IMG/VR virus record: IMGVR_UViG_3300028394_000037
Reading direction: 5' to 3' (one strand)
Source: a virus
DNA length: 64,000 nucleotides
A model generated the notes under the pieces. It had not been told where the DNA came from, did no database searches, and was given only the letters and a program-made list of their open reading frames with translations. Each line of letters starts with the position of its first letter. The first letter of the stretch is position 1. The translations under genes and the position numbers were made by a program. This document shows positions 6,296 to 36,370 of the stretch, piece by piece.

Positions 6296-7627
6296 TCAAC
6301 CACCTGTAGTTGTTCTTGTACTTCTCCTCATCTGATCAAGATAATATTGAGTATGAGGTCTTGCTTTACTAGTATCCCCTGCTTTTAATGCCTTGGCTGC
6401 TGGACCACTATCATTTCCCATCATAGCATCAGCAGCAGCAGCAGAGTACTCTCTAGACATTCCTCCCGTTTGCCCTCTGTGCTTAGGAGATCCAGCTTCT
6501 GCTGCTTGCGCTTCAAGTCTTTTTCTTAGATCAGTACTAGAAGGTGGTTTTTCCCCTTTTTTGTGAGTAAATCTTGCCCTATTTAAAGTGTCTCCAGTTT
6601 TAATACTACCAAGACCCTTTCCACCACTCATTTGATTGATAGCACCTTTGCTAATTGGTCTCCATCCTTCAATAATAGATTCTAACCAAGCATCACTCAT
6701 ATGCTCTACAATATTTTCTGCTGAATCAAAATTTTCAGCAAAACAATTATCAACCAAAGTTTCAATTACATAATCATAAATGTTTTCAGTTTCTTCCCTC
6801 ATTGCTTGCTTTCTTTTCCAAGCATAATAAATTTTTTCACCTTTTTCTGCTCCATACTCTTTCATCATTGCCTTTTTTGCTGAAGAAGTTTTCTTTCCAA
6901 GTGCTTCTTCCTTTCTTCTTTCCACAGAAGTCATATGTCTTTCATCAAGTTCATATTCTTCAGTATTAAGTGGAAGTTTTCCTTGCTTTAATGCATTGAT
7001 TTTAAATTGCTGTTGCTTTCTTACAAGATTTATTAATTCTTGTGGAGTTGGTTCTTGTTGAGTTGGTTCTTGTTGAGTTGGTTTTTTTGATTGGGAATCA
7101 ATTTCTTCCTTTCTTAAACTTTTAAGTATTTCATCAGGAGATTTTGTAATAGTATCAGATTTTTCACGGGGAATTTGTTTTCTTTTTGCTTGCAATTTCA
7201 AAAGTTTCTGTCTTCTTCTTCTGAGTTTTTCTTCTCTTTCATAATCTGTTTCTTCACCAATTTCAACCATTTCAATCAATTCACCACCCAATTCAGAGGC
7301 AATCTGAATCATCTCAGTATTCATCGTTGGATTGATTTCAACTATATTATTTACCTCTTTTTCTTTAATTTGTTTTTTATTTTGCTCATTATCAACTAAA
7401 TCAGCAATTTCAAATAAATCATCTCTCCAATTTGATAATGATTCTTTACGAGTTTTAATTACAGAACCTATTTTTCTACGACGATTTAAAAGATACTTAT
7501 CGGTCTTTGTATTTTTTTTACGATCATTATCAATGTCAGAATCTTCTTGTCCTACTGGATCAAGTTTTTCAGATACAATTTTTCCAAAATAAACCTTTGA
7601 AATATCGTTAAGAATATTATTAGACAT
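6296..7627 (-). CDS. Modular charged protein, probable internal head protein, carrying a diverged copy of the shared 38-aa module
   Basis: 443 aa. KLDPVGQEDSDIDND motif, alternating acidic linkers and basic blocks, YDYVIETLVDNCFAENFDSAENIVEHMSDAWLESIIE. TATAAATA at 7661-7668. Confidence 0.7.
   Translation of the reverse strand: MSNNILNDISKVYFGKIVSEKLDPVGQEDSDIDNDRKKNTKTDKYLLNRRRKIGSVIKTRKESLSNWRDDLFEIADLVDNEQNKKQIKEKEVNNIVEINPTMNTEMIQIASELGGELIEMVEIGEETDYEREEKLRRRRQKLLKLQAKRKQIPREKSDTITKSPDEILKSLRKEEIDSQSKKPTQQEPTQQEPTPQELINLVRKQQQFKINALKQGKLPLNTEEYELDERHMTSVERRKEEALGKKTSSAKKAMMKEYGAEKGEKIYYAWKRKQAMREETENIYDYVIETLVDNCFAENFDSAENIVEHMSDAWLESIIEGWRPISKGAINQMSGGKGLGSIKTGDTLNRARFTHKKGEKPPSSTDLRKRLEAQAAEAGSPKHRGQTGGMSREYSAAAADAMMGNDSGPAAKALKAGDTSKARPHTQYYLDQMRRSTRTTTGG
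7041..7085. repeat. 15-bp in-frame tandem repeat (PTQQE PTQQE PTPQE)
   Basis: gagttggttcttgtt unit, about 3 copies. Confidence 0.85.
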
Positions 7628-8915
7628 TAGAATAAATGCTTTTTTTTATTTTTCTATACTTATTTATAAATTCTTTGATAGCATAATATTTTGCACCAGA
7701 TTGTAAATTTTCTTTTCCAGTTTTAATTGCTCCTGGAGTTTGTTTTGCTGCGTATTTAGCTGCCCCAAGAGTTCCCGTTAAAGTATTTGGTTTACCAGGC
7801 TCTCTATACATACGGTTCATATTTTTTTCAGTATATTCATTCAAATCTTTAATCCAAGACTTAAACATAATATCATCTTCGGTAACACAAATTAAATAAT
7901 TAGTTCCTCTACGAATTACTTTTCCAGTCAATCCAGTATTCATATTTTCTACAATATCACCAATTTTAAAAATTTTATTTTGAACATAATTTTCTCTCAA
8001 ATTTTCATTATCCAATTTTGGAGCAATTTGCCACAAATTAAAATTTTCTTTTATTGAAATTTCCATTCCTTTACGAACATCATTAAATAATTTTTTCGTT
8101 TCTTTATCATCAAGTTTTTTAGGAACTCCTCTTCGGAAAGTTTCAAAATCATTTTCTGCTGCTGCCTTTCTCATTTTAGATGCCGACATTCCTGATGCAT
8201 TTTTATCAGAATCTGCTGTTCCTGCTGCAACTACATTGATTTGTGAAAAATTATATTCAGAACCATTATACTTATTTGCAAGATTTTTAATCTCTGCTTG
8301 ACGATCTGAACCAACAACAATATTTACATTTCCATACCCATCCTCAGAAGTTGCCCTCAATACATCAAAGATATTTTGCATATCCGGATTATTAATTATA
8401 TTTTCACCAAATTTAGGAAACATTTTTCTCATATATGAGATTTTTGTATTGGGATCCAATGGATTCTTTTTTGGATCTTGAATCCTAGATGGATAAATTT
8501 TCAATTCTCCACCAATAGAAATACGATCTGCAGTCTTAAAAAGTTTTTCGTGTCCTATTGTCGGTGGATTAAATCTTCCAAAAATAATTGTAGAGAATTC
8601 ATCATTTTGTTGTTGTTCTAGAGATTGCTGTTGTTGCTGTGGCAATTCAGATTGTATTTGTTGTGTTGGTAAATTAACTTGAGTTCCTGCGACTTGTTGA
8701 TTTGCTTTTGTTTTTGGACCATCTGGAATATCTCTTTTACCTACTCTTTCACCACGATTAAAAAATTCAAGTTCACCCCCAACAGTTTTAGCAACAAATT
8801 CTCCACGAGAATCATACCAATCCCCGTGCCCATCACCTTGCAATCCAAGTTTTTTGGCTTGTTCTGATGCTTTAGTTTTCTTTGCTTCTATTAAGAACTG
8901 AGAAAATCTCTTCAT
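7620..8915 (-). CDS. Cytidylyltransferase-like (HxGH-superfamily) nucleotidyltransferase with capsid-targeting-like N-terminus
   Basis: FGRFNPPTIGHEKL, VVGSDR and MSASKMR motifs. N-terminus MKRFSQFLIE, poly-Q linker, C-terminal SH3/KOW-like FKIGDIVEN...GKVIRRGTNY. Confidence 0.85.
   Translation of the reverse strand: MKRFSQFLIEAKKTKASEQAKKLGLQGDGHGDWYDSRGEFVAKTVGGELEFFNRGERVGKRDIPDGPKTKANQQVAGTQVNLPTQQIQSELPQQQQQSLEQQQNDEFSTIIFGRFNPPTIGHEKLFKTADRISIGGELKIYPSRIQDPKKNPLDPNTKISYMRKMFPKFGENIINNPDMQNIFDVLRATSEDGYGNVNIVVGSDRQAEIKNLANKYNGSEYNFSQINVVAAGTADSDKNASGMSASKMRKAAAENDFETFRRGVPKKLDDKETKKLFNDVRKGMEISIKENFNLWQIAPKLDNENLRENYVQNKIFKIGDIVENMNTGLTGKVIRRGTNYLICVTEDDIMFKSWIKDLNEYTEKNMNRMYREPGKPNTLTGTLGAAKYAAKQTPGAIKTGKENLQSGAKYYAIKEFINKYRKIKKSIYSNV
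7661..7668 (-). promoter_or_regulatory. Late promoter TATAAATA embedded in the 3' end of the upstream gene
   Basis: Exact consensus 34 nt upstream of ATG 7627. Confidence 0.75.
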
Positions 8916-8933
8916 ACTATATTATTTTTTAAA

Positions 8934-8941
8934 TATTTATC
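8934..8941 (-). promoter_or_regulatory. Late promoter GATAAATA
   Basis: Overlaps the upstream stop codon, 19 nt from ATG 8915. Confidence 0.65.
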
Positions 8942-10418
8942 AATATAGTTTTAAATGAAATGATGCACTAATCTTATTTGGTGCAATTTGGTTTGCCATA
9001 AGAATAGATCTTGCCTTATCATCTGCCTGATCTTGAGTTAAATTCTTTTGTCCAATTTTTTTAGATTTATTGTATATATTTTTTCCTATTCTTTCAATAA
9101 TTTTTTCAGAATCCTTTCTATTCAAAATCCCTTTACTTACAATTCCAGACCATAAATCCAAAATAATTTCATCTTGTTTTTTTTGATTTCCTGAATTTTG
9201 AATTGCAAAAGCAATTTCTAATTTATTTTGTGCATTTCTATAACTTCCAATATATGATGATAGTGTTTTATTTTTAACTGATGGATCTATATTTTTTGCC
9301 AACACATCCATATACTTTTCTGAATTTTTCTTTTTATCATCATAACTTTTACCAATCATTTCACCATTACTAACAATATCAGGTGATAATGATTTGTTAA
9401 ATACTTGACCACGAATAGATTGCATCTTTCTAATAGCACCAGAATTATACAAAATAATATTTGCACCACTCATACCCATTGATCCCCCAGCGGCAGTCTT
9501 AAATTGTGCTTCTTTTTCAACTTTAAGAGATGAACTAGCATTATTATATCTAATACTATCAGTTTCTCTCTTATAACTAATTTTTCCATTTTTTTCCAAT
9601 GTTAGTTGATCTACTTCAACAACATATTTGAGAGTTTCATCAACTTTATAATATGTTGATTCATTTTTTATAGAATTAGTTCTAGATTTAACTGATGGAG
9701 GATTTGGTAGAGGTATTTCTTTTGATGGAAAATTTACAAATCCAATTCGTGAAGAATATACACCTTTAGTTGATGTCGCTTTCTTAAGAGAAATTGGTGC
9801 TAATTTTTTTTGTTCATATAATTTATAAATTAATCTATTCAAACCTACAATATCATCTATAGCATATTTTTTTTGAACATCATTTGGCATATTTTGAAAT
9901 GCATTTCCCATAACAACAGATAATTTGATATATTCTTTTATTTTATCTACTGCAGACTGATCAAAGAACCAAACATCAGCAGGATTCCATCTATCAGATT
10001 TTACATTAATTTTAAATGTACCCATATACACTTTATTTAAAAAAATACCAATATTACTAATTTTATAAAAGTAATCTTGTCTACATATTTCTAATTTTTT
10101 AGTAAATGAAACTTTTGGATTTTTTAAAAAATTTTCATTTTGTGATTTTAATGCTCCGTGCCAATCATCAGTTACAAAAAATGTTTTAGCATTACCCAAT
10201 TTCCTATTAACTGTAATAACATCCGATTTTAAATTTGAAAATTCATCTAATATTCCAAGTTTTTCAAGAGATCCAGTCAATTTATCTTTACCAGAAAAGG
10301 CATCAATCCAAAAATCTGGAGTTACTTCAATACCTCTTAATGTAAAATTTTGAGATTTTTTTTGAATGACATAATATACAGTCCACATTGTCTCTAAAAC
10401 AGTTGCAGTTGCAGCCAT
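8940..10418 (-). CDS. Hypothetical protein, putative PD-(D/E)XK-fold nuclease
   Basis: DRWNPADVW followed later by PISLKK. Very Lys/Asn-rich. Start moved to MAATAT (10418) because the track's longer N-terminus runs through a terminator and promoter. Confidence 0.55.
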   Translation of the reverse strand: MAATATVLETMWTVYYVIQKKSQNFTLRGIEVTPDFWIDAFSGKDKLTGSLEKLGILDEFSNLKSDVITVNRKLGNAKTFFVTDDWHGALKSQNENFLKNPKVSFTKKLEICRQDYFYKISNIGIFLNKVYMGTFKINVKSDRWNPADVWFFDQSAVDKIKEYIKLSVVMGNAFQNMPNDVQKKYAIDDIVGLNRLIYKLYEQKKLAPISLKKATSTKGVYSSRIGFVNFPSKEIPLPNPPSVKSRTNSIKNESTYYKVDETLKYVVEVDQLTLEKNGKISYKRETDSIRYNNASSSLKVEKEAQFKTAAGGSMGMSGANIILYNSGAIRKMQSIRGQVFNKSLSPDIVSNGEMIGKSYDDKKKNSEKYMDVLAKNIDPSVKNKTLSSYIGSYRNAQNKLEIAFAIQNSGNQKKQDEIILDLWSGIVSKGILNRKDSEKIIERIGKNIYNKSKKIGQKNLTQDQADDKARSILMANQIAPNKISASFHLKLY

Positions 10419-10437
10419 ATTCTTTGCATCTTTCTTA

Positions 10438-10444
10438 TATTTAG
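10438..10444 (-). promoter_or_regulatory. Late promoter variant CTAAATA
   Basis: Abuts the terminator U-tract, 20 nt upstream of ATG 10418. Confidence 0.65.
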
Positions 10445-10476
10445 AAAAAAAAAGACCCCCCTTGTGAGGGGGGTCT
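10445..10476 (-). terminator. Intrinsic terminator
   Basis: 10-bp stem AGACCCCCCT/AGGGGGGTCT, 4-nt loop, U9 tail on the minus strand. Confidence 0.9.
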
Positions 10477-10499
10477 CTGTACAAATTTGTAAATAGTTT

Positions 10500-11066
10500 T
10501 CAACCTAGAATAGAATTTCTCCAATTTTCACTCATATTCACCATAATTCTTTCTGCTGCTTCTACAGTTTCAGCATATCCTTCATCTAAAAGATGTGAAA
10601 GAATGAGGTCATAGAGGTCATAAGAGTTGTTTAGATTTTTTCTATTATTATAAACTGCTTTTACCGCATTAAATGAAACTCTATCCTTTTTCTTTTCATC
10701 ATCAGAGAGATTGGAATATGGAGTATTAGCAAGTACTGATCTTCTTTCTTTTTGTTCTGGAGTTTGATCGGCACTTGTTTTTGCTGTTCTTGCCCATCCT
10801 TGGTGAACTGCATCGGAACCTGCTTCGGTTGAAGTTCCACTACCACTTCTTTCACCTCTTCTGAGAGCACGAAGAGCAGCAGCAGCAGAAGAACGATTTG
10901 CTGCTCTACCAAAAGAATGTTTATCTCCAGTTGCTCTACCATATCCATATCTAGAATCTAATGCAGCATCAGATGCTTTTTCATAAGGACTATCTTCCTT
11001 TTCCATAATATTATTATAAACATCTAAATATGCTTCTTGAAGATTGCGTAATTCTTGTGAGTTCAT
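10500..11066 (-). CDS. Modular protein: leader, RyR-like domain, shared 38-aa module
   Basis: MNSQELRNLQEAYLDVY leader, SDAVHQGW...PYSNLSDDEKKKDR, then YDLYDLILSHLLDEGYAETVEAAERIMVNMSENWRNSI. Confidence 0.75.
   Translation of the reverse strand: MNSQELRNLQEAYLDVYNNIMEKEDSPYEKASDAALDSRYGYGRATGDKHSFGRAANRSSAAAALRALRRGERSGSGTSTEAGSDAVHQGWARTAKTSADQTPEQKERRSVLANTPYSNLSDDEKKKDRVSFNAVKAVYNNRKNLNNSYDLYDLILSHLLDEGYAETVEAAERIMVNMSENWRNSILG
10518..10634. repeat. 117-bp dispersed direct repeat, copy 1
   Basis: Matches 11543-11659 with 7 mismatches by hand count, including a 66-bp perfect core. Confidence 0.95.
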
Positions 11067-11086
11067 CTGTATGATTACTTTTTAGA

Positions 11087-11094
11087 TATTTATA
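11087..11094 (-). promoter_or_regulatory. Late promoter TATAAATA
   Basis: Exact consensus 21 nt upstream of ATG 11066. Confidence 0.8.
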
Positions 11095-11155
11095 AAAAAA
11101 GACCCCTTGGAGAAGTCTTGGAAAAGTTTGGAAAGTGGTTTTACTAATAAGTTGA

Positions 11156-12028
11156 CTATGGTTTTGAAAGAATTGGATCAACTTTAACATTTGAACCTGT
11201 TCTGTCATTTCTTCTTGCCGCTGCCTGATGGGCGTTACGTCTTTGAAAAAATTCTTTTGTAGGCGCTCCAGTATCTATGTCTCGTCTATCTCTTGCTCTT
11301 AATAATCCTGCTACTTTTTTATCAGAAATTTCATTAAGTTTTGAAAGAATTGGATCAACTTTAACATTTGAACCTGTTCTGTCATTTCTTCTTGCCGCTG
11401 CCTGATGGGCGTTACGTCTTTGAAAAAATTCTTTTGTAGGCGCTCCAGTATCTATGTCTCGTCTATCTCTTGCTCTTAATAATCCTGCTACTTTTTTATC
11501 AGAAATTTCATTAAGTTGCTCAAACTCTTCAAAAATACTTTCTCTCCAATCTTCGGACATATTCACCATAATTCTTTCTGCTGCTTCTACAGTTTCAGCA
11601 TATCCTTCATCTAAAAGATGTGAGAGGATGATGTCATAGAGGTCATAAGAGTTGTTTAGTGCTCTTGTTATTCTAGTAACATTTGATTGAGTTCTGTCTC
11701 TATTATCCCCAATACCATAAGGAATATTGCTCATTATTCTACCATATCCACCTTTCTTAGGTTTTGGGACAGTAGTTCCTGGGTTTGCAATTTTATCATC
11801 TGGTTTTTCGAACTTCTTTGGTCCACCATATCCAGTTCCGTCTCCCTTTTCACCTGAAAGTGGTTTTGATGGAGGTAAAGGAGGAAGTTTTCTGGCTACA
11901 TAAGGTTCTACCCCAGGTGCTCTTGCTTCACCAAAAATCAATCCATTTTCTTCCATTGCATCACGAAGTTCTTCATCATATACTGCCTGATATGCAAGTA
12001 AAGACTCTACTAGAATTCTTGAATCCAT
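11156..12028 (-). CDS. Modular protein: leader, Pro/Gly/Lys-rich block, shared 38-aa module, two identical 59-aa repeats
   Basis: MDSRILVESLLAYQAVY leader, YDLYDIILSHLLDEGYAETVEAAERIMVNMSEDWRESIFE, and LNEISDKK...DPILSK twice. Confidence 0.8.
   Translation of the reverse strand: MDSRILVESLLAYQAVYDEELRDAMEENGLIFGEARAPGVEPYVARKLPPLPPSKPLSGEKGDGTGYGGPKKFEKPDDKIANPGTTVPKPKKGGYGRIMSNIPYGIGDNRDRTQSNVTRITRALNNSYDLYDIILSHLLDEGYAETVEAAERIMVNMSEDWRESIFEEFEQLNEISDKKVAGLLRARDRRDIDTGAPTKEFFQRRNAHQAAARRNDRTGSNVKVDPILSKLNEISDKKVAGLLRARDRRDIDTGAPTKEFFQRRNAHQAAARRNDRTGSNVKVDPILSKP
11161..11517. repeat. Exact 177-bp tandem duplication (in frame, 59 codons)
   Basis: 11161-11337 equals 11338-11514; no mismatch found on manual comparison. 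Confidence 0.95.
11543..11659. repeat. 117-bp dispersed direct repeat, copy 2
   Basis: Offset 1025 bp from copy 1. Confidence 0.95.
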
Positions 12029-12053: not shown

Positions 12054-12069
12054 TTTATTTATAAATAAA
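12054..12069. promoter_or_regulatory. Palindromic double late promoter
   Basis: Perfect 16-bp palindrome TTTATTTATAAATAAA with TATAAATA on minus (12056-12063) and plus (12060-12067). Confidence 0.7.
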
Positions 12070-12103: not shown

Positions 12104-12511
12104 TCACTTATCGTTAGGATCTCTATTTTCGGAGCGATAAACATCAAAAGCACCTTCGGGATAACGCTTACTGAGTTTTAAATAGTTACGTTCTAGAACT
12201 TCCTCAAAAGAAACATCAAGTGCCATACAGGCTTGTGCGGCATACCACATAATGTCACCAAGTTCAATTTTCAAATGTTCTATATTATCTTCATTATAAG
12301 GTTTTCCTTGAAGAAACATTTTCTTTACAATTTCAGTAAACTCACCTGCCTCTGCACTCATACCAAATGAAGCAGTAAGAAGACGAGGAACATCAGCATC
12401 AGCAAGTTCTAATTCAGTCAAACGAGCAAAAAGTGCTGCAAAATCAGTGCTTTCTTTACTTGTAGTTTGACGAACAAATTCAATATATTTTTGTGTATCT
12501 ATTTTAGACAT
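12104..12511 (-). CDS. mazG: MazG-like NTP pyrophosphohydrolase
   Basis: AEAGEFTEIVKK...ELGDIMWY...NYLKLSKRYP; conserved position after g41 in cyanophages. Confidence 0.93.
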   Translation of the reverse strand: MSKIDTQKYIEFVRQTTSKESTDFAALFARLTELELADADVPRLLTASFGMSAEAGEFTEIVKKMFLQGKPYNEDNIEHLKIELGDIMWYAAQACMALDVSFEEVLERNYLKLSKRYPEGAFDVYRSENRDPNDK

Positions 12512-30485: not shown

Positions 30486-31916
30486 TTACATGAGATTTTT
30501 TACAGAAACACGTCTGTAGTAACGGTTTGCATTAACTTGCAATCTACCTTGACCTTGAGTGGTTCCTTCTGCAAATGGGTTAGCAACAATACCGTAACGA
30601 GTCTTGAAGCCAATCTTTGGTTGGAAGGAGTTCTCACCAACGGCACGAACCATTTGGAGAGGAACATAAGGACAATAGAAGAGTCCAGCATCATAAGGGG
30701 ATGTACCCTTATAACCGACAACATAGTACTGATTAGTACCTTGTGCAAGACCAATGTTGTTAGCAGCGAGGTTAGCAGAATATGGGTCAATATATACGCG
30801 GAATTTGCCCATCAATGTACCAGCAAAAGTATTGCCAGTGTCATCAACGTTAAGGTTAGCGTTGAGTGCAGGGGTGTAGTCAAGAACACCAGCCATGGTA
30901 AGTGCTGAAGCAACGTCAGCAGAACACATGATGATGTTGCCCTTTCCACGACGAGTTCTTTGTGCGATTGCGTTAGCATCACGCTCAATTTGGAACAAGA
31001 GACCCTTGAACTTCTCAACTGACCAACGACCGTTGGAATCAACGTCAAGGTCAAATACACCAGCAGTAGCGGTGTTTTGAACAGCACCTTGCTCAGCAAC
31101 CTTGTAGATGGTACGAATAACTTCGCGGTTGATTTCAGCAAGAATCTCAGTTGAGAGAATGTTTGCCAATTCCGCTTCAGCATTCAGACCATGAATTGCC
31201 TTAAGGTCTTGTGCGAGTTCTAATGAGTACTCAGCCTTGAGTGCTCTAGACTTTGCAGTAACAGTGACCTTCTCAATTGAGAATGCCATCTGGTTGAACT
31301 GGTCACCACCAGCGCCATCTCCAAGTGCTTCTGCATCACCAGTCTGCATTCCGTTACCAACGTTGTATGCAGTTTGATCGCCAGCACCACCAACAGGGTT
31401 AAGAACTGATGGGTTGGTTCCAGATTGTGAAGTAGTACCAATACCAGCAGCAGTGCTACCAAATCCAACGTTATCAAACGCTGAATTTTGTCCAGAGAAT
31501 GCTGAATCTACTTCATTGTAGAATGCTTCATTACCGGATTGATTGGTGTAACGTGAACGCATTGCGAAGATGAGTCCAGTAGGACCGCTCATTGGTTGAA
31601 CACCTGCGAGGTCATAAGCGACCAAGTTAGGCATTGAACGACGAATGAGTGAGATTAGAACTGGATCAAAACCTGCGGTAGGACCACCAGAAGCAGAACC
31701 ACCACTGAAACCACCAGTACCAGTTGAGTTAGTTGGTGATTCCATGAGCATACTCATGGATCCATTATCAAAAGAAGATTGCTCTCTTAAGAATTTTTCT
31801 TGATTTTCTAGCAGGACTGCGGTTACAGCTCTACGATGGGAATCTTTAATTTGATCAAGACCCTCATAGTTGAGAAGTGGTGCCCACTTTTCCTGCAGAT
31901 GTTCTGATTGAAACAT
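30486..31916 (-). CDS. gp23: Major capsid protein
   Basis: KWAPLL, LLENQE, GVQPMSGPTGLIFAMR, KSRALKAEYSLELAQDLKAIHG, YCPYVPL, FKTRYG. Confidence 0.99.
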   Translation of the reverse strand: MFQSEHLQEKWAPLLNYEGLDQIKDSHRRAVTAVLLENQEKFLREQSSFDNGSMSMLMESPTNSTGTGGFSGGSASGGPTAGFDPVLISLIRRSMPNLVAYDLAGVQPMSGPTGLIFAMRSRYTNQSGNEAFYNEVDSAFSGQNSAFDNVGFGSTAAGIGTTSQSGTNPSVLNPVGGAGDQTAYNVGNGMQTGDAEALGDGAGGDQFNQMAFSIEKVTVTAKSRALKAEYSLELAQDLKAIHGLNAEAELANILSTEILAEINREVIRTIYKVAEQGAVQNTATAGVFDLDVDSNGRWSVEKFKGLLFQIERDANAIAQRTRRGKGNIIMCSADVASALTMAGVLDYTPALNANLNVDDTGNTFAGTLMGKFRVYIDPYSANLAANNIGLAQGTNQYYVVGYKGTSPYDAGLFYCPYVPLQMVRAVGENSFQPKIGFKTRYGIVANPFAEGTTQGQGRLQVNANRYYRRVSVKNLM

Positions 31917-31972: not shown

Positions 31973-33160
31973 TTATTTGCTGAATGCTGAAAGAGTTTTC
32001 AAGTAAGAAGCCATTGTTCCTGAAATTGATTCAGGTGAACTATCTACACCTTCTGATAAAGTTTCAGTTTTAGCTTTTGGAGTTCTATGAGTTGGGAAGT
32101 ATGACTCCCTCAATATCTCCAATTTTTCACGATATTCTGCTTCACTTTCAAACTCAACACTTTCGGAAAGTGAGGCGAGCTTCTCTTTCTGAGTAATCGC
32201 AAGACCCTCAGAAACTTGATCTAAGATTCCATCAGCAACCGACTCTGCGAGACGCCTGTTAAGGGAAACATTTTTCTCAATCTGCTCGTTGAGTTTTGTC
32301 TCCATTTCATCAAGTTTTACTACCATACTATCTAACACATCATATTTATCTTCAGGGATTTCTACATAATGTTCTTCAAAAAGACCTTTCATTCCTGAAA
32401 GGAATGATTCTGTAAGTTCTGACTTAAGACCTTGCTCAATTGCAAGAAAATTTTCTGCAAACCATTCATCAGAAACATATTCTAGATAGGAATCAACACG
32501 ATCACTAAGATTTTCTTTGATGATTTCAACTTCTTCAATCAATCTTTGATCATATTGATACTCAAGAGATTCTTTAATTTCATAAACTTTAGATTTTAAA
32601 GCAGCTTCAAAAATTGTTTTTGCTTTTACTTTAAATTCTTCTGAAAGATCTTCGCCACCAAGAAGAGCATTTACATCCTCTTCAATTTCAAAACTTTCAT
32701 CCATATCTTCTTTTTCATCTTCTTCATCCTCATCATCTTCTTCAGATTTCTTAGGATTCTTTTTACCATATTCTTTTTTATCTTCCTTCTTATCTTCTTC
32801 ACTCCCTTCGTCTTCGTATTCTTCCTCTTCTTCTTTTGCTTCTAGAAGTTCTTCATCTTCATCATAATCAGAATCTTCCTTCATTCCTTTCATTGGGCCA
32901 GCACCTTTTGCACCCTTGTTTACAACATCTCTAACTTGCTTGAGTGTTGCACCAGGAGTTTTAAGTTTTGCTGTTCCGTTTTCATCATTAGTATAATCTT
33001 CTGGAGTAGGACCACCGAGGTCTTCCCAACTACCAGTTTGCCCAGCGACAGCGCCGCCAGCTAATTTTGGCATCGCATCTGCTGCTTTAGCATTCGTATT
33101 CACAGCAGTTTTGGATTGCTTAGTGCCTACTTCCATTTCTTGTAGATCTCCACGAGACAT
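31973..33160 (-). CDS. gp22: Prohead core scaffolding protein
   Basis: EDLGGPTPE, acidic tract, LSEEFK..AKTIFEAA, VDSYLEYV; between g21 and g23. Confidence 0.93.
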   Translation of the reverse strand: MSRGDLQEMEVGTKQSKTAVNTNAKAADAMPKLAGGAVAGQTGSWEDLGGPTPEDYTNDENGTAKLKTPGATLKQVRDVVNKGAKGAGPMKGMKEDSDYDEDEELLEAKEEEEEYEDEGSEEDKKEDKKEYGKKNPKKSEEDDEDEEDEKEDMDESFEIEEDVNALLGGEDLSEEFKVKAKTIFEAALKSKVYEIKESLEYQYDQRLIEEVEIIKENLSDRVDSYLEYVSDEWFAENFLAIEQGLKSELTESFLSGMKGLFEEHYVEIPEDKYDVLDSMVVKLDEMETKLNEQIEKNVSLNRRLAESVADGILDQVSEGLAITQKEKLASLSESVEFESEAEYREKLEILRESYFPTHRTPKAKTETLSEGVDSSPESISGTMASYLKTLSAFSK

Positions 33161-33206: not shown

Positions 33207-33857
33207 TTAAAGATTTGCTAGAAAATCGTTGAACAGATTTAATTTCTGCTCATCAAGTTGTTTTTGGTCAGAAAGAGTATTAATTCTTCTTTGAATTTTA
33301 GTTGCAACTTGTTCACGAAGAATTCCTCCTTCCCAAATCCACTCCTTACCTTCCATAATTCCCTGAACAAATGCATCAGGGGCAGAAGGGTCTGCAACAA
33401 TATCTGCAGCAGTAGCAAGCATAAAATCTTGACCAACTTCATTGTATCCATCACGATTTCTTATGACAGATCCTATACCACGAGAAGATACTCCAAGAGT
33501 AACTCCAGAGTTTAAGAGTGCCTCTGCAATTTTACCCATTGGAGTTGGAAGAATTTGAGCTTTACCAATAAAATTATTTCCCTCAGCATAAAGGCAAACA
33601 ATTTTATGAGAAACTCTATCCAAATTTACAGTCGGACCATCAGGATGTCCGAGTTCTCCAAGTGCCCTACCTTTCAAGATATAATTTTCATTATATCGTT
33701 TAACTTCCCTTTCCATTACTGGAAAGCGATATACTCTATTATTACGATTTGGTTGTTCCGTTTGAAGGAATGGACCTTGAATGAATAGTGTTTTCTTACC
33801 ATTTACACTTTCGGTAAGAACTTCTACTGATTCTATTTCTTCGGTAATGAGTTTCAT
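33207..33857 (-). CDS. gp21: Prohead protease
   Basis: MKLITE, NRNNRVY, ALGELGHP, GVSSRGIGS, DIVADPSAPDA. Confidence 0.97.
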   Translation of the reverse strand: MKLITEEIESVEVLTESVNGKKTLFIQGPFLQTEQPNRNNRVYRFPVMEREVKRYNENYILKGRALGELGHPDGPTVNLDRVSHKIVCLYAEGNNFIGKAQILPTPMGKIAEALLNSGVTLGVSSRGIGSVIRNRDGYNEVGQDFMLATAADIVADPSAPDAFVQGIMEGKEWIWEGGILREQVATKIQRRINTLSDQKQLDEQKLNLFNDFLANL

Positions 33858-34411
33858 CAGGCTTGGTTGGTAATTTGTACTTGTTGATAATAAAGTATTC
33901 CACCACCACCTGCCCCGTAAGCAGCAATCTTTTGAGAAATAACTGCGGTAGCATCGGTTGGCGCAAAGGCAGTCAGAATTCCACTTGAATTATAGCTTAC
34001 GGTAATTCTGCCTTGGAAATAACCATTTACACCAGAAGATGTATCTACAGATGCAACTCTCTGATGGGAGAAATCATAATATGATTGTCCACTTGCAGTT
34101 AGACTGATATAATCACCAACACCAAATGGTGCTTGAGTACCTTCTGCAAAGGTTAGAATCGTTGATGTTCCAGTGGTAACACCAACTACTCTATTAGATG
34201 CTTTTGTAAGCGCAAGAGTTACTGCAGACCCTGATGGAATGTAGTAGTCAGTTACTGATGTAGCTGGACTTGCTGCAATTGCAACGTGTGCAGCTCCACC
34301 AACCGCAATCACTCTCAAAGTATCAGACTGAACTGAAAATGCTGTTGAAGTTGTTGCGGTTCCTGCTGTAAATGCAAATGAGGCACCTGCCCCAACCGGT
34401 CTATGCGTCAT
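33857..34411 (-). CDS. Conserved hypothetical, probable virion protein
   Basis: Beta-rich 184 aa between g20 and g21; CTAAATA at 34436-34442; TGATG overlap with g21. Confidence 0.7.
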   Translation of the reverse strand: MTHRPVGAGASFAFTAGTATTSTAFSVQSDTLRVIAVGGAAHVAIAASPATSVTDYYIPSGSAVTLALTKASNRVVGVTTGTSTILTFAEGTQAPFGVGDYISLTASGQSYYDFSHQRVASVDTSSGVNGYFQGRITVSYNSSGILTAFAPTDATAVISQKIAAYGAGGGGILYYQQVQITNQA

Positions 34412-34464: not shown

Positions 34465-34650
34465 TCACTCTTCGTCTTCTTCCTCATATTCTTCTTCGGA
34501 GTCTTCATCTTCACCAAATAGTGAAGATGCTACCATTGGACGAAATGCATCCAGTCTTTCTGCAGATTTTGAGAACAACAAGTCCTTAATTTTATCGCTA
34601 ATATGCGAAGGAGATTCGTCAGAAACAATCATATCCATCAGTTCATCCAT
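34465..34650 (-). CDS. Small acidic protein at the position of T4 prohead core genes 67/68
   Basis: MDELMDMI...ISDKIKDLLFSKSAERLD..RPMVASSLF with acidic tail; tandem TATAAATA at 34676-34689. Confidence 0.7.
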   Translation of the reverse strand: MDELMDMIVSDESPSHISDKIKDLLFSKSAERLDAFRPMVASSLFGEDEDSEEEYEEEDEE

Positions 34651-34684
34651 AGTTTTGACCAATTACTTACTTGTGTATTTATAT

Positions 34685-36370
34685 TTATATTTCAGCCCCT
34701 TTGGGAATTTCTGCTACTTTTGCATCTACTTTTGTAACATCTCCTTGCTTATCAATATTTGGTTCCATTACTGGTTGTCCTAAATTACCCATTTGACCAT
34801 CTTGCAATGGCATTCCAGTCTGAGGATCAATTGGAGTATTTGGATCTGGAATGATACCATTTTCAATTTCCTTTTTCATCAACATATCCTGTTCAAGAAT
34901 CTCAACGTCAGTTTGACGAAGAATTTTTCTTCTCAGATAATCTTGAGAAAAATACCTACCAACATATGGTTCTGCAACTTGAACCATATTTAATCTTTCA
35001 TTGAGAAGTTCTGCATCTTTAAGTTCTGCAAAGTGATTATCATACAAGAAGTCATATTGAATATGTTCATCCATCATCTCCCAATCTTCTGGAGTAATAA
35101 TATTTTTAAGAAGTAATTGAGTTCTTAGCATATCATTGAACATATATGAGAATCTTTTTCTCAAACGAGCAACAAATTTACTAAACTTAACTTCATCACG
35201 AAGAATTTCAGATGAACGTCCTAAATTAAATCCACCTTCACCATCCATTCTTGATGGTGGAACATTTAGAGAACGATAAAGTTTTTTCTTAAAGTATTCA
35301 ATATCTGTAATTTCTCCAAGATTTTGACCACCAGGAAGAGTTGTAATTTCTGTTCCTCTACCACCTTCTCTACGTGGAAGCCAGAAATCTTCCAGCATAC
35401 TCATAAATTTCTTATCATCTCGTACTTCACCAGTATTGGCATCATATACAAGTTTATTGCGATATCTCATCATTACATCACGAAGATATTGCTCTGCTTT
35501 AACCTTAGGGAGATTACCAACGTCAATATAGAAAATTCTTCTTTCTGGAGCACGAGAAAGTCTATAGATTACAAGACTATCTTCAATCATTCTCAATTGA
35601 TTGAGAGATTTGATTGACTTATGTAGATATGAAAGAGTTGATCCTTTATTGCGATCTACAAGACCTGAAGTGCAATATGTAATGGAATCTTTTGTCATCT
35701 TGATTCCTGCCTCACCACCCAAAGCTGAAGGATTTCCTGTAGGATATGTCATCTTTGGATTGTAGATGAAATATTCCTCCAATTCTGGAAATTCATATTC
35801 CATTGGATTGCTATTATTTGTATTTCCTAATCTATATTTTCTATCACTATCTTTTGTTTTTTTCTGTTGCCTTACATAACGCATCTTCATTGCGTCAATA
35901 TATCTTAATTCTTGAATTCCTTCTTCTGGTTTTTTAAAATCAATTACTTTATGATAATAAAGTCTTCCATCAATATACCAATTTCTATAAATTTCGTGAG
36001 ATTTTCTATCAAAATCCAATAAATCTAAAATAACTTTAAATTCTTCTCTGATCTTTTTCTTTATACCATCACTGGCATTTAGATTTGAAAGTTCAATTTG
36101 TACCGGAGAATCATTTGTATCTGATACAATTGCTTCATTTACTAAATCTTCAATTGCACTATCACATTCTGGATGAAGTGCCATTTCACGGTATCTTTTA
36201 ATTAAATCAAACTCAGTTCTATAAACACCTTCAATATCTACATAAGAACCAAAAAATCCACTACTTAGATAAAAATCAGACCCGTCTTCACTGTTAGGTG
36301 CGACGGGCGATACTGTAGATGGAGATAGTGGTTGATTGTCCTCAATAGAAAAACCAAATAATTTTGCCAT
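34685..36370 (-). CDS. gp20: Portal vertex protein
   Basis: MAKLFGFSI, YRLSRAPERRIFYIDVGNLPK, EDFWLPRREGGRGTEITTLPGG. Confidence 0.99.
   Translation of the reverse strand: MAKLFGFSIEDNQPLSPSTVSPVAPNSEDGSDFYLSSGFFGSYVDIEGVYRTEFDLIKRYREMALHPECDSAIEDLVNEAIVSDTNDSPVQIELSNLNASDGIKKKIREEFKVILDLLDFDRKSHEIYRNWYIDGRLYYHKVIDFKKPEEGIQELRYIDAMKMRYVRQQKKTKDSDRKYRLGNTNNSNPMEYEFPELEEYFIYNPKMTYPTGNPSALGGEAGIKMTKDSITYCTSGLVDRNKGSTLSYLHKSIKSLNQLRMIEDSLVIYRLSRAPERRIFYIDVGNLPKVKAEQYLRDVMMRYRNKLVYDANTGEVRDDKKFMSMLEDFWLPRREGGRGTEITTLPGGQNLGEITDIEYFKKKLYRSLNVPPSRMDGEGGFNLGRSSEILRDEVKFSKFVARLRKRFSYMFNDMLRTQLLLKNIITPEDWEMMDEHIQYDFLYDNHFAELKDAELLNERLNMVQVAEPYVGRYFSQDYLRRKILRQTDVEILEQDMLMKKEIENGIIPDPNTPIDPQTGMPLQDGQMGNLGQPVMEPNIDKQGDVTKVDAKVAEIPKGAEI

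Follow-up and report, generated by a model that had tools for sequence, protein, structure and literature searches.

Three genes in IMG/VR virus record IMGVR_UViG_3300028394_000037 (a stretch of 64,000 nucleotides (nt) from a T4-like myovirus genome, referred to below as the window) are most likely members of a very large family of late head-cargo precursors in freshwater T4-like myoviruses of the cyanophage lineage. The three open reading frames (ORFs), which we call P0001, P0002, and P0003, are present on the minus strand where a preliminary description, made from the sequence alone, had placed them (Table 1). Family genes share a common layout: a late promoter, an acidic leader, a basic payload, and an acidic three-helix module ending in IxE, followed by optional further units. 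We think that these proteins are probably cargo polyproteins similar to the internal proteins of T4, loaded into the prohead and cut by the gp21 protease.

A conserved three-helix module

The preliminary description had proposed that the three genes, otherwise unrelated, share a module of about 38 amino acids (aa). A module of ~40 aa is indeed homologous in all three, with BLASTP E values of 2e-27 (P0002/P0003), 3e-8 (P0001/P0003), and 4e-7 (P0001/P0002), and a hidden Markov model (HMM) of the module, the check that had been suggested, found exactly three copies in the six-frame translation of the window, the next match being at E 2.7 (Table 1). "Otherwise unrelated" went slightly too far; P0002 and P0003 have ~30 aa in common upstream of the module as well. 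Between these two genes the module DNA is 91% identical across 126 nt. The module consensus is (x)SYDLYDIILSHLLDEGYAETxEAAExIMVNMSEDWRESIxE, with at least 90% conservation at most positions.

An AlphaFold2 model of the module, made from an alignment of 78 sequences, is a confidently predicted three-helix mini-domain (pLDDT 83), in which helix 1 ends and the loop begins at the invariant LLDE↓GY (the arrow marks a candidate cleavage position). Neither Pfam nor NCBIfam has a model for the module. A Foldseek search against the PDB gave nothing at E≤0.001, its matches lying at E>1; the VIA wide fold search gave a best Z of 5.6, to a generic three-helix structure, and the ESM Atlas returned only unnamed clusters of 51-52 aa, at 0.78. 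LisH (PF08513) matched somewhere in the protein in 2 of 139 family members, and isolated modules gave no LisH match at E≤10. PF14407 (Frankia peptide resembling ribosomally synthesized and posttranslationally modified peptides) was flagged on P0037 and P0039; 1 of 139 scanned members matches it. A homodimer prediction with two copies of the module scored 0.21 against a mark of 0.42, which counts neither way. A weak tblastn similarity between the module and the gp22 gene (32435-32521, E ~0.2) vanished when the family HMM was used (E 29).

The module also occurs nearly alone. Stand-alone mini-proteins of 52-54 aa contain little beyond one copy (L075:29-181 and L067:9364-9516; proteins P0155 and P0147), and a 105-aa protein consists of one truncated and one full module.

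Family size, gene layout, and charge

Searched among 1.84 billion representatives, with clustering at 50% identity, the module HMM gave 2,981 clusters at E≤1e-3 and 1,301 at E≤1e-10; a separate module search gave 1,552 proteins of 159-508 aa. Family proteins carry one to three modules. Payload diversity is very large, with flanks hypervariable across ~2,980 clusters, so the module does not always stand in the same flanking sequence; constant flanks were what the preliminary description had named as speaking against its proposal. A complete 247-kb genome has seven module matches at scattered sites, and three partial genomes have three or four each. Cultured carriers are only a handful of Synechococcus myoviruses, mostly from fresh water or reservoirs (S-SRM01, S-CRM01, DSL-LC02/03, B3/B23, S-SCSM1, and S-SCSM2R), among which S-SRM01 and S-CRM01 have four module matches each. 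In the literature collection searched, no paper with motifs such as LLDEGY and NLQEAY was found.

The three genes had been described as late, and the sequence supports this: each of the three ATGs is preceded, 21-34 nt upstream, by a TATAAATA box. Of 113 family genes taken from 78 IMG/VR loci, 89 carry the same box at most 70 nt upstream of the ATG, the usual distance being 19-27 nt. Terminators separate the window genes, with one downstream of P0003 and one downstream of P0002.

Charge follows the layout. Leaders have a net charge of about -4 and modules -9.6 per copy (~-10 per 47 aa), whereas the linkers, that is, the payloads, carry +9.8 per 100 aa with 22% Lys plus Arg; in the window the payload net charges are +7, +9, +6, +7, and +12. 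Whole precursors are near-neutral (mean +1.3, median +1.0, 321 proteins), and the same holds for one-module and two-module forms.

Leaders and payloads

A leader shared by all three window proteins had been proposed; this stands for P0002 and P0003 but not for P0001. The N-terminus of P0002 is the canonical family leader (leader HMM E 1e-14), and that of P0003 resembles an extended leader subclass, with a Smith-Waterman score of 44.5 against 19.2 ± 3.2 in shuffles, none of 2,000 of which reached it. P0001 begins with another recurrent type, LNDISKVY, which recurs in S-SCSM1 ORF92 as MTHLNDISKVY. The canonical leader, M[ND][SA]Qxx[RH]NLQEAYLxVY, starts 164 of 197 unique members, and in 150 of these 164 an [LIV]xE tripeptide follows within 22 residues of the AY. 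Further leader classes recur as well, e.g., MNYRDLQNISNLSQEILxE and MRDQEIIGLWEAY.

Residues 18-61 of P0001 (7444-7576, minus strand) hold a segment, SEKLDPVGQEDSDIDNDRKKNTKTDKYLLNRRRKI, with an EF-hand-like DxDxDND stretch. This segment is 68% identical to residues 77-120 of S-SCSM1 ORF92, a virion protein, and matches phrog_4359 and phrog_38880, both of unknown function.

Most payloads are without a Pfam domain and are, by composition, disordered polycations. The payload of P0002 is predicted by AlphaFold2 to be a folded helical domain (pLDDT 80-93, pTM 0.70) and, as modeled, resembles a single RyR repeat. A profile of its orthologues matched only RyR-domain chains in the PDB (6uhi, 8.1e-5; 4n05, 0.018), with the RyR hallmark VHxxWA...PYxxLxxxEKxxDR aligned in these matches; P0002 reads VHQGWA...PYSNLSDDEKKKDR. 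VIA comparison of the payload with RyR gave Z scores of 4.8 (root mean square deviation 4.0, 124 aligned residues) and 4.6, and the Pfam RyR model (PF02026) gave E 0.017, with 15.8 bits against a cutoff of 27.4. In P0003, the exact 177-nt duplication (Table 1) is probably real and polymorphic, because a one-copy variant exists in databases (P0028, 231 aa) and, in three of four freshwater metagenome runs, depth on the collapsed repeat contig is ~2x that on its flanks.

Junctions and exchange of payloads

The (L/I)xE tripeptides after which payloads had been said to begin are present: IME at residues 20-22 of P0002, LNE at 172 and 231 of P0003, and IIE at 318 and LDE at 227 of P0001. Comparison across the family supports that claim, in that payload homology starts at such sites. 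As a correction, no conserved site separates a payload from its following module. In 210 cross-context pairs (one protein with the payload behind a leader, its partner with the same payload behind a module), homology began within 3 residues of [LIV]xE at 76% of ends, compared with 10% of random positions falling within -1 to +3; the 210 pairs are not phylogenetically independent. Of 178 module copies, 131 end in [LIV]xE, and the module end is also the exact end of 33 proteins, as it is of P0002. A conserved cleavage site just before the module (LNE↓SYDLYD), which column counts had suggested, was rejected, the joint frequency being 18/190.

Individual payloads illustrate the exchange. The P0002 payload (KEDSPYEKASDAAL...) follows a leader ending IME↓ or LDE↓ in P0002, P0110, and P0129 and a module end in P0006 and P0022 (DIME↓, SIME↓); the first payload of P0003 (ERAPGVKPY...) and its 59-aa unit (ISDKK...) likewise occur in different contexts. 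The junctions include IME↓KEDSPYEK, LDE↓KEDSPYEK, and SIME↓KEDSPYEK; LDE↓ERAEGVKPY and SIIE↓ERAPGVKPY; and LNE↓ISDKK and LDE↓ISDRR. Among freshwater metagenome contigs, alternative contexts diverge directly after the codon for E167 that ends the P0003 module (loose ends at 11527-11529).

T4-type capsid-targeting sequences and virion evidence

In T4, the capsid-targeting sequence (CTS) is an N-terminal propeptide; IPIII and IPII start MKTYQEFIAE↓A (read from NC_000866). Cutting of the T4 CTS is reported to be blocked by E-to-D substitutions. Its first ten residues suffice for head targeting, which depends mainly on positions 4 and 7, while processing depends on positions 8 and 10 (PMC9026906). 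A CTS of the MKTYQEFIAE type is on none of the three genes, and a regular-expression scan of the window matched only an NMNAT/cytidyltransferase-like gene that lies between them. This protein starts MKRFSQFLIE↓AKK, which agrees with the T4 CTS at positions 4, 7, 8, 10, and 11; orthologues start MKSFLQFLKE↓A (S-SCSM1 ORF91), MKKFSAFLTE↓A (S-RIM2), and similarly in others, and the N-terminal 60 aa are conserved in 253 cyanophage records. NMNAT-like proteins have repeatedly been found in cyanophage virion proteomes (PMC9602691), a recurrence that the CTS-like N-terminus, as read from these sequences, may explain. Residues 15-56 of the NMNAT protein (AKKLGL..DGHGGWYD..GEFVAKT) recur in OR473000.1 (S-CREM2) at 12235-12360, within a protein whose annotation is APH-like Ser/Thr kinase, and in the 934-position PHROG profile phrog_3561; the region may be another portable N-terminal module on packaged enzymes.

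Close to family genes in related contigs, 39 unique proteins start M-K-T-[FY]-x-[EQ]-F-[ILMV]-x-E-A. Every one has a positive net charge (mean +21.9), and the sequences beyond this start are diverse. The CTS-type genes, with products of 68-482 aa, are clustered in tandem arrays that adjoin module genes, and some have payloads in common with proteins of the module family. Whole contigs totaling 653 kb contained seven CTS-type starts, each of them within 2.6 kb of a module match, and a reversed-pattern control gave 0. Payloads common to T4-type CTS, leader, and module carriers were found, with identities of 70% (171 aa), 70% (116 aa), and 89% (115 aa). CTS, leader, and module are thus evolutionarily interchangeable carriers, which argues that they do the same job.

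Virion data exist for one family member. S-SCSM1 ORF89 combines a leader of related type (MDSKTFNSLSEAYAAVY) with a basic payload and a module (HMM E 1e-12), and ORF89 and its neighbors ORF90 to ORF93, including the NMNAT protein ORF91, are annotated as virion proteins detected by mass spectrometry (MS) (PMC9602691).

Interpretation and alternative explanations

The observed basis for reading the family as internal-protein-like cargo is its layout, conservation, charge pattern, late promoters, junction positions, carrier interchange, linkage to CTS arrays, and co-occurrence with gp21. We infer that the proteins encoded in the window would be packaged and cleaved, that their module would serve either in docking or as a charge-masking pro-piece, and that payloads would be injected and act as effectors. 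In the model, each precursor would start with an acidic leader of ~20 aa, M[ND][SA]Qxx[RH]NLQE↓AYLxVY..(L/I)DE↓, followed by a basic, hypervariable payload, either a disordered polycation or a small folded domain (RyR-like in P0002), then by the module, running from YDLYD to IxE↓, and optionally by further payload units with or without a module. The acidic leader and module would offset the charge of the polycationic cargo, to near neutrality, and guide the precursor to the prohead core during assembly, and gp21 would then cut at the (L/I)xE junctions; the basic payloads would remain with the packaged DNA and, at infection, probably exit together with it. The two acidic parts could plausibly serve both for charge masking before assembly and for specific binding to a conserved head component, and the latter fits the very high conservation of module surface residues.

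The cargo-precursor idea of the preliminary description is supported as far as units resembling T4 internal proteins are joined at gp21-type sites and share payloads with CTS genes, with a correction for the site before a following module. Conserved (L/I)xE sites alone would not free a payload from the acidic module behind it, so that cuts at conserved sites would leave the module on the payload C-terminus unless LLDE↓GY is also cut. Several other observations weigh against it. The [LI]xE tripeptide is not enriched within linkers (147 observed versus 144 ± 10 in shuffles); P0003 has FGE↓A instead of a canonical (L/I)xE where its leader meets the payload; the N-terminus of P0001 has no significant likeness to the family leader, its score being reached by 463 of 2,000 shuffles; and there is no detectable homology between the family leader and the T4 CTS. 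No binding partner of the module was identified. At identical module codons, third-position identity is 0.75 against 0.57 expected, and from this excess, together with the 91% identical module DNAs of P0002 and P0003, DNA-level homogenization or gene conversion may lie behind part of the module's extreme conservation. For the MS-detected proteins of S-SCSM1, the authors noted that some were possibly carried-over abundant late proteins (PMC9602691).

There are three other explanations, all of which are less well supported than the internal-protein-like cargo model. The proteins could be accessory core or scaffold proteins of the prohead, co-assembling with gp22 and degraded by gp21, including at LLDE↓GY, with fragments that mostly exit before packaging and nothing functional injected. 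We consider this unlikely. The acidic leader and module do resemble the acidic, protease-degraded T4 core proteins gp22, gp67, and gp68 (PMC9026906), LLDE↓GY lies at the end of helix 1 in the model, LDE↓GY serves as a leader-payload junction elsewhere in the family, and the late promoters and near-neutral precursors are also in its favor. A purely structural role, however, fits poorly with ~2,980 clusters of payload diversity and cassette-like shuffling; payloads are shared with CTS-type basic proteins, which T4 retains in the head and ejects, and ORF89 was detected in mature virions. It is more improbable that the module itself is the delivered effector, an acidic domain that binds a conserved host or phage target (e.g., as a DNA mimic), the basic linkers being DNA-binding tethers in the head. 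Such a role would suit the conservation of nearly all module positions, including surface acidic, His, Asn, and Ser residues, the strong negative charge, the stand-alone module proteins, and the lack of a conserved cleavage site from payload to following module. Against this, the fold searches found only a generic three-helix structure and indicated no mimic or binding family, the module shares its carrier position interchangeably with the leader and the T4-type CTS, and several payloads are folded conserved domains themselves, such as the RyR-like one.

Finally, the family might comprise cytoplasmic proteins that are made late and do not enter heads at all (for instance, regulators or assembly chaperones), in which the junctions are the ends of recombining blocks and the module and leader are DNA recombination handles. 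The excess of synonymous-site identity and the 91% nucleotide identity of the module in two adjacent genes point this way, as do freshwater metagenome module bins with 3-10x the summed contig depth of their flanks, other contexts diverging at the module borders; the MS detection in S-SCSM1 could be carry-over. We give this explanation the lowest probability. The module has a confidently predicted fold, about a quarter of its synonymous sites differ under an unchanged amino acid sequence, the ends of the blocks agree with the gp21 consensus of T4 and neighboring genes have a near-exact T4 CTS, and the charge balance of the precursors points to design at the protein level.

A larger version of the cargo model is possible, although on balance we doubt it: the leader and module would be a second capsid-loading system that works beside the T4-type CTS in freshwater T4-like phages and exchanges cargo with it. 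The module would then be a new prohead-docking and charge-masking pro-domain, and the ~3,000 payload clusters would be injected effectors (anti-defense, nucleotide-binding, or DNA-binding) evolving by in-frame cassette exchange at protease sites.

The phage and its head genes

The genes around the three family genes are all on the minus strand, in the order nrdA, primase, small ORFs, P0001, the NMNAT/cytidyltransferase-like gene, P0005, P0002, P0003, MazG, gp41-like helicase, and UvsX. The closest named relatives are Synechococcus myoviruses (Kyanoviridae), the best being S-SCSM1, with 72% nucleotide identity across the NMNAT gene. Several freshwater metagenome runs contain the window (67-93% of sampled words, contigs at least 99% identical), and the phage is therefore from fresh water; RNA runs contain 4-10% of its sampled words. 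PHROG matches identify gp21, gp22, gp23, and the portal in the window, with E values of 3e-79, 2e-100, 2e-171, and 4e-223, respectively. Each of the four large contigs that bear the module encodes a gp21 67-78% identical to that of the window.

A small, very acidic ORF (..EDEDSEEEYEEEDEE; 34465-34662, minus strand) lies between the portal gene and an ORF at 33857-34411, upstream of gp21, with TATAAATA boxes just upstream of it at 34676-34689. It occupies the place of the small prohead core proteins gp67 and gp68 in T4. For P0005 (8940-10484, minus strand), the listed TTG start at 10484 falls within the terminator hairpin of the upstream gene, and the likely start is the ATG at 10418 (MAATATVLETMW...). 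Its W-N-P-A-D...I-S-L-K-K motifs, reminiscent of a PD-(D/E)xK nuclease, are colinear with those of S-SCSM1 ORF90, an MS-detected virion protein; the pairwise similarity is weak (E 0.16).

Table 1. Features of the three family genes, the head genes of the window, and CTS-type arrays on related contigs
Feature	Position	Strand	Details
P0001, 443-aa divergent member	6296..7627	minus	LNDISKVY-type N-terminus, mixed charged regions, divergent module, basic 123-aa tail (+12)
P0001 divergent module copy, aa 277-320	6668..6799	minus	Net charge -12; ends IIE↓G; HMM E 2e-15
Late promoter box TATAAATA	7661..7668	minus	34 nt upstream of P0001 ATG, within NMNAT gene 3' end
NMNAT/cytidyltransferase-like gene	7620..8915	minus	Between family genes; N-terminus at 8883-8915
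P0002, 188-aa minimal family member	10500..11066	minus	Canonical leader, folded helical payload (predicted), C-terminal module
P0002 leader, aa 1-22			LQE↓A at 9-11, IME↓K at 20-22
P0002 payload, aa 23-145	10632..11000	minus	Net charge +7; predicted folded helical domain resembling single RyR repeat
P0002 module copy, aa 146-188	10503..10631	minus	HMM E 5e-29; protein stops at module end (..SILG-stop)
Late promoter box TATAAATA	11087..11094	minus	21 nt upstream of P0002 ATG
Strong intrinsic terminator after P0002	10451..10478	minus	Overlaps listed TTG start of ORF 8940-10484
P0003, 290 aa	11156..12028	minus	Leader variant, basic payload rich in Pro/Gly/Lys, module, pair of identical basic 59-aa units with LNE before each
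P0003 leader region, aa 1-34	11927..12028	minus	Net charge -7; subclass ..AYxAVYDEELRD..
P0003 module copy, aa 125-167	11528..11656	minus	Net charge -9; ends IFE; HMM E 6e-31
Exact 177-nt tandem duplication (2 x 59 aa, 100% identity)	11161..11514	minus	Units LNE↓ISDKKVAGLLRAR..ILSK, net charge +6 and +7
Late promoter box TATAAATA, T4-type	12056..12063	minus	28 nt upstream of P0003 ATG
Intrinsic terminator-like hairpin after P0003	11099..11119	minus	
gp23	30486-31916		PHROG match
gp22 scaffold	31973-33160		PHROG match
gp21-type prohead maturation protease	33207..33857	minus	PHROG match; presumed processing enzyme
Portal	34685-36370		PHROG match
CTS-type gene arrays	L056:1088-3500, L011:4252-7900, L077:4518-6300, L062:6250-8500, L026:4905-7200, L004:2619-6700		

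Significance and comparison with known systems

The CTS/internal-protein system of T4 and its polymorphism are already known (PMC9026906, PMC3012670), and differences in internal proteins between close T4 relatives are also noted in PMC4122927. We found no description in the literature of the leader-plus-module family, of a polyprotein layout with near-neutral precursors, of T4-type CTS gene arrays in this lineage, or of the CTS-like start of the cyanophage NMNAT/cytidyltransferase. If our reading is correct, the T4 paradigm would extend to an abundant, largely uncultured lineage of freshwater phages, a near-exact T4 CTS would be in use far beyond the T-even coliphages, and head-packaged cargo would have a new carrier in the conserved acidic leader with the three-helix module. 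Thousands of candidate injected proteins, bounded by protease sites, would make the search for cyanophage anti-defense or takeover effectors tractable, and leader, module, and junction could serve as engineering parts for loading proteins into cyanophage capsids.

The closest known counterparts are IPI, IPII, and IPIII, which T4 carries as internal proteins. In T4, a variety of basic proteins are brought to the core by CTS propeptides, which gp21 removes, and the internal proteins copurify with gp22 and differ among related phages (PMC9026906, PMC3012670). The family likewise consists of late genes, with several paralogues per genome, in genomes that encode gp21, gp22, and gp23; both have a short N-terminal propeptide ending in (L/I)xE and a basic, nonconserved mature part, so that the carrier is conserved and the cargo hypervariable, and in related contigs a near-exact T4 CTS stands on adjacent genes with which payloads are exchanged. 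The family leader (MNSQxxRNLQEAYLxVY..LDE), however, is longer than MKTYQEFIAE and not detectably homologous to it. The family differs further in its extra three-helix module, which is conserved and acidic and often lies at the C-terminus or separates units, in the multi-unit polyprotein form of many members, and in the charge neutrality of whole precursors.

T4 Alt, an ADP-ribosyltransferase, and CTS-tagged enzymes offer a second parallel, that of a head-packaged enzyme or folded domain, to which the CTS-like start of the NMNAT protein and the presence of its orthologue in virions correspond. The N- and C-terminal propeptides of Alt are both removed by gp21 (PMC9026906), which parallels an N-terminal leader combined with a C-terminal module. 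Alt has no sequence relationship to the family, whose C-terminal element is a conserved folded module in thousands of proteins.

The giant phages phiKZ and SPN3US contain many head-internal proteins, some of them multi-fragment, that are cut at xxE by a gp21-related protease and ejected (PMC5694885, PMC7411985, PMC9026906). They belong to another lineage and use another cleavage motif, and the accounts consulted describe no shared leader-plus-module chassis; we found no sequence similarity to the inner-body and ejection proteins of these phages. At the level of gene organization, the family resembles promoter early stem-loop elements (PeSLs), the promoter/terminator cassettes through which modules are shuffled in T4-like genomes. 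Family genes, too, are self-contained terminator-promoter-gene-terminator units in variable regions, with DNA-conserved blocks at the points of shuffling. The PeSLs are conserved promoter-terminator regulatory motifs, whereas the recombining blocks of the family are coding, namely the leader and the module, and are accompanied by late promoters.

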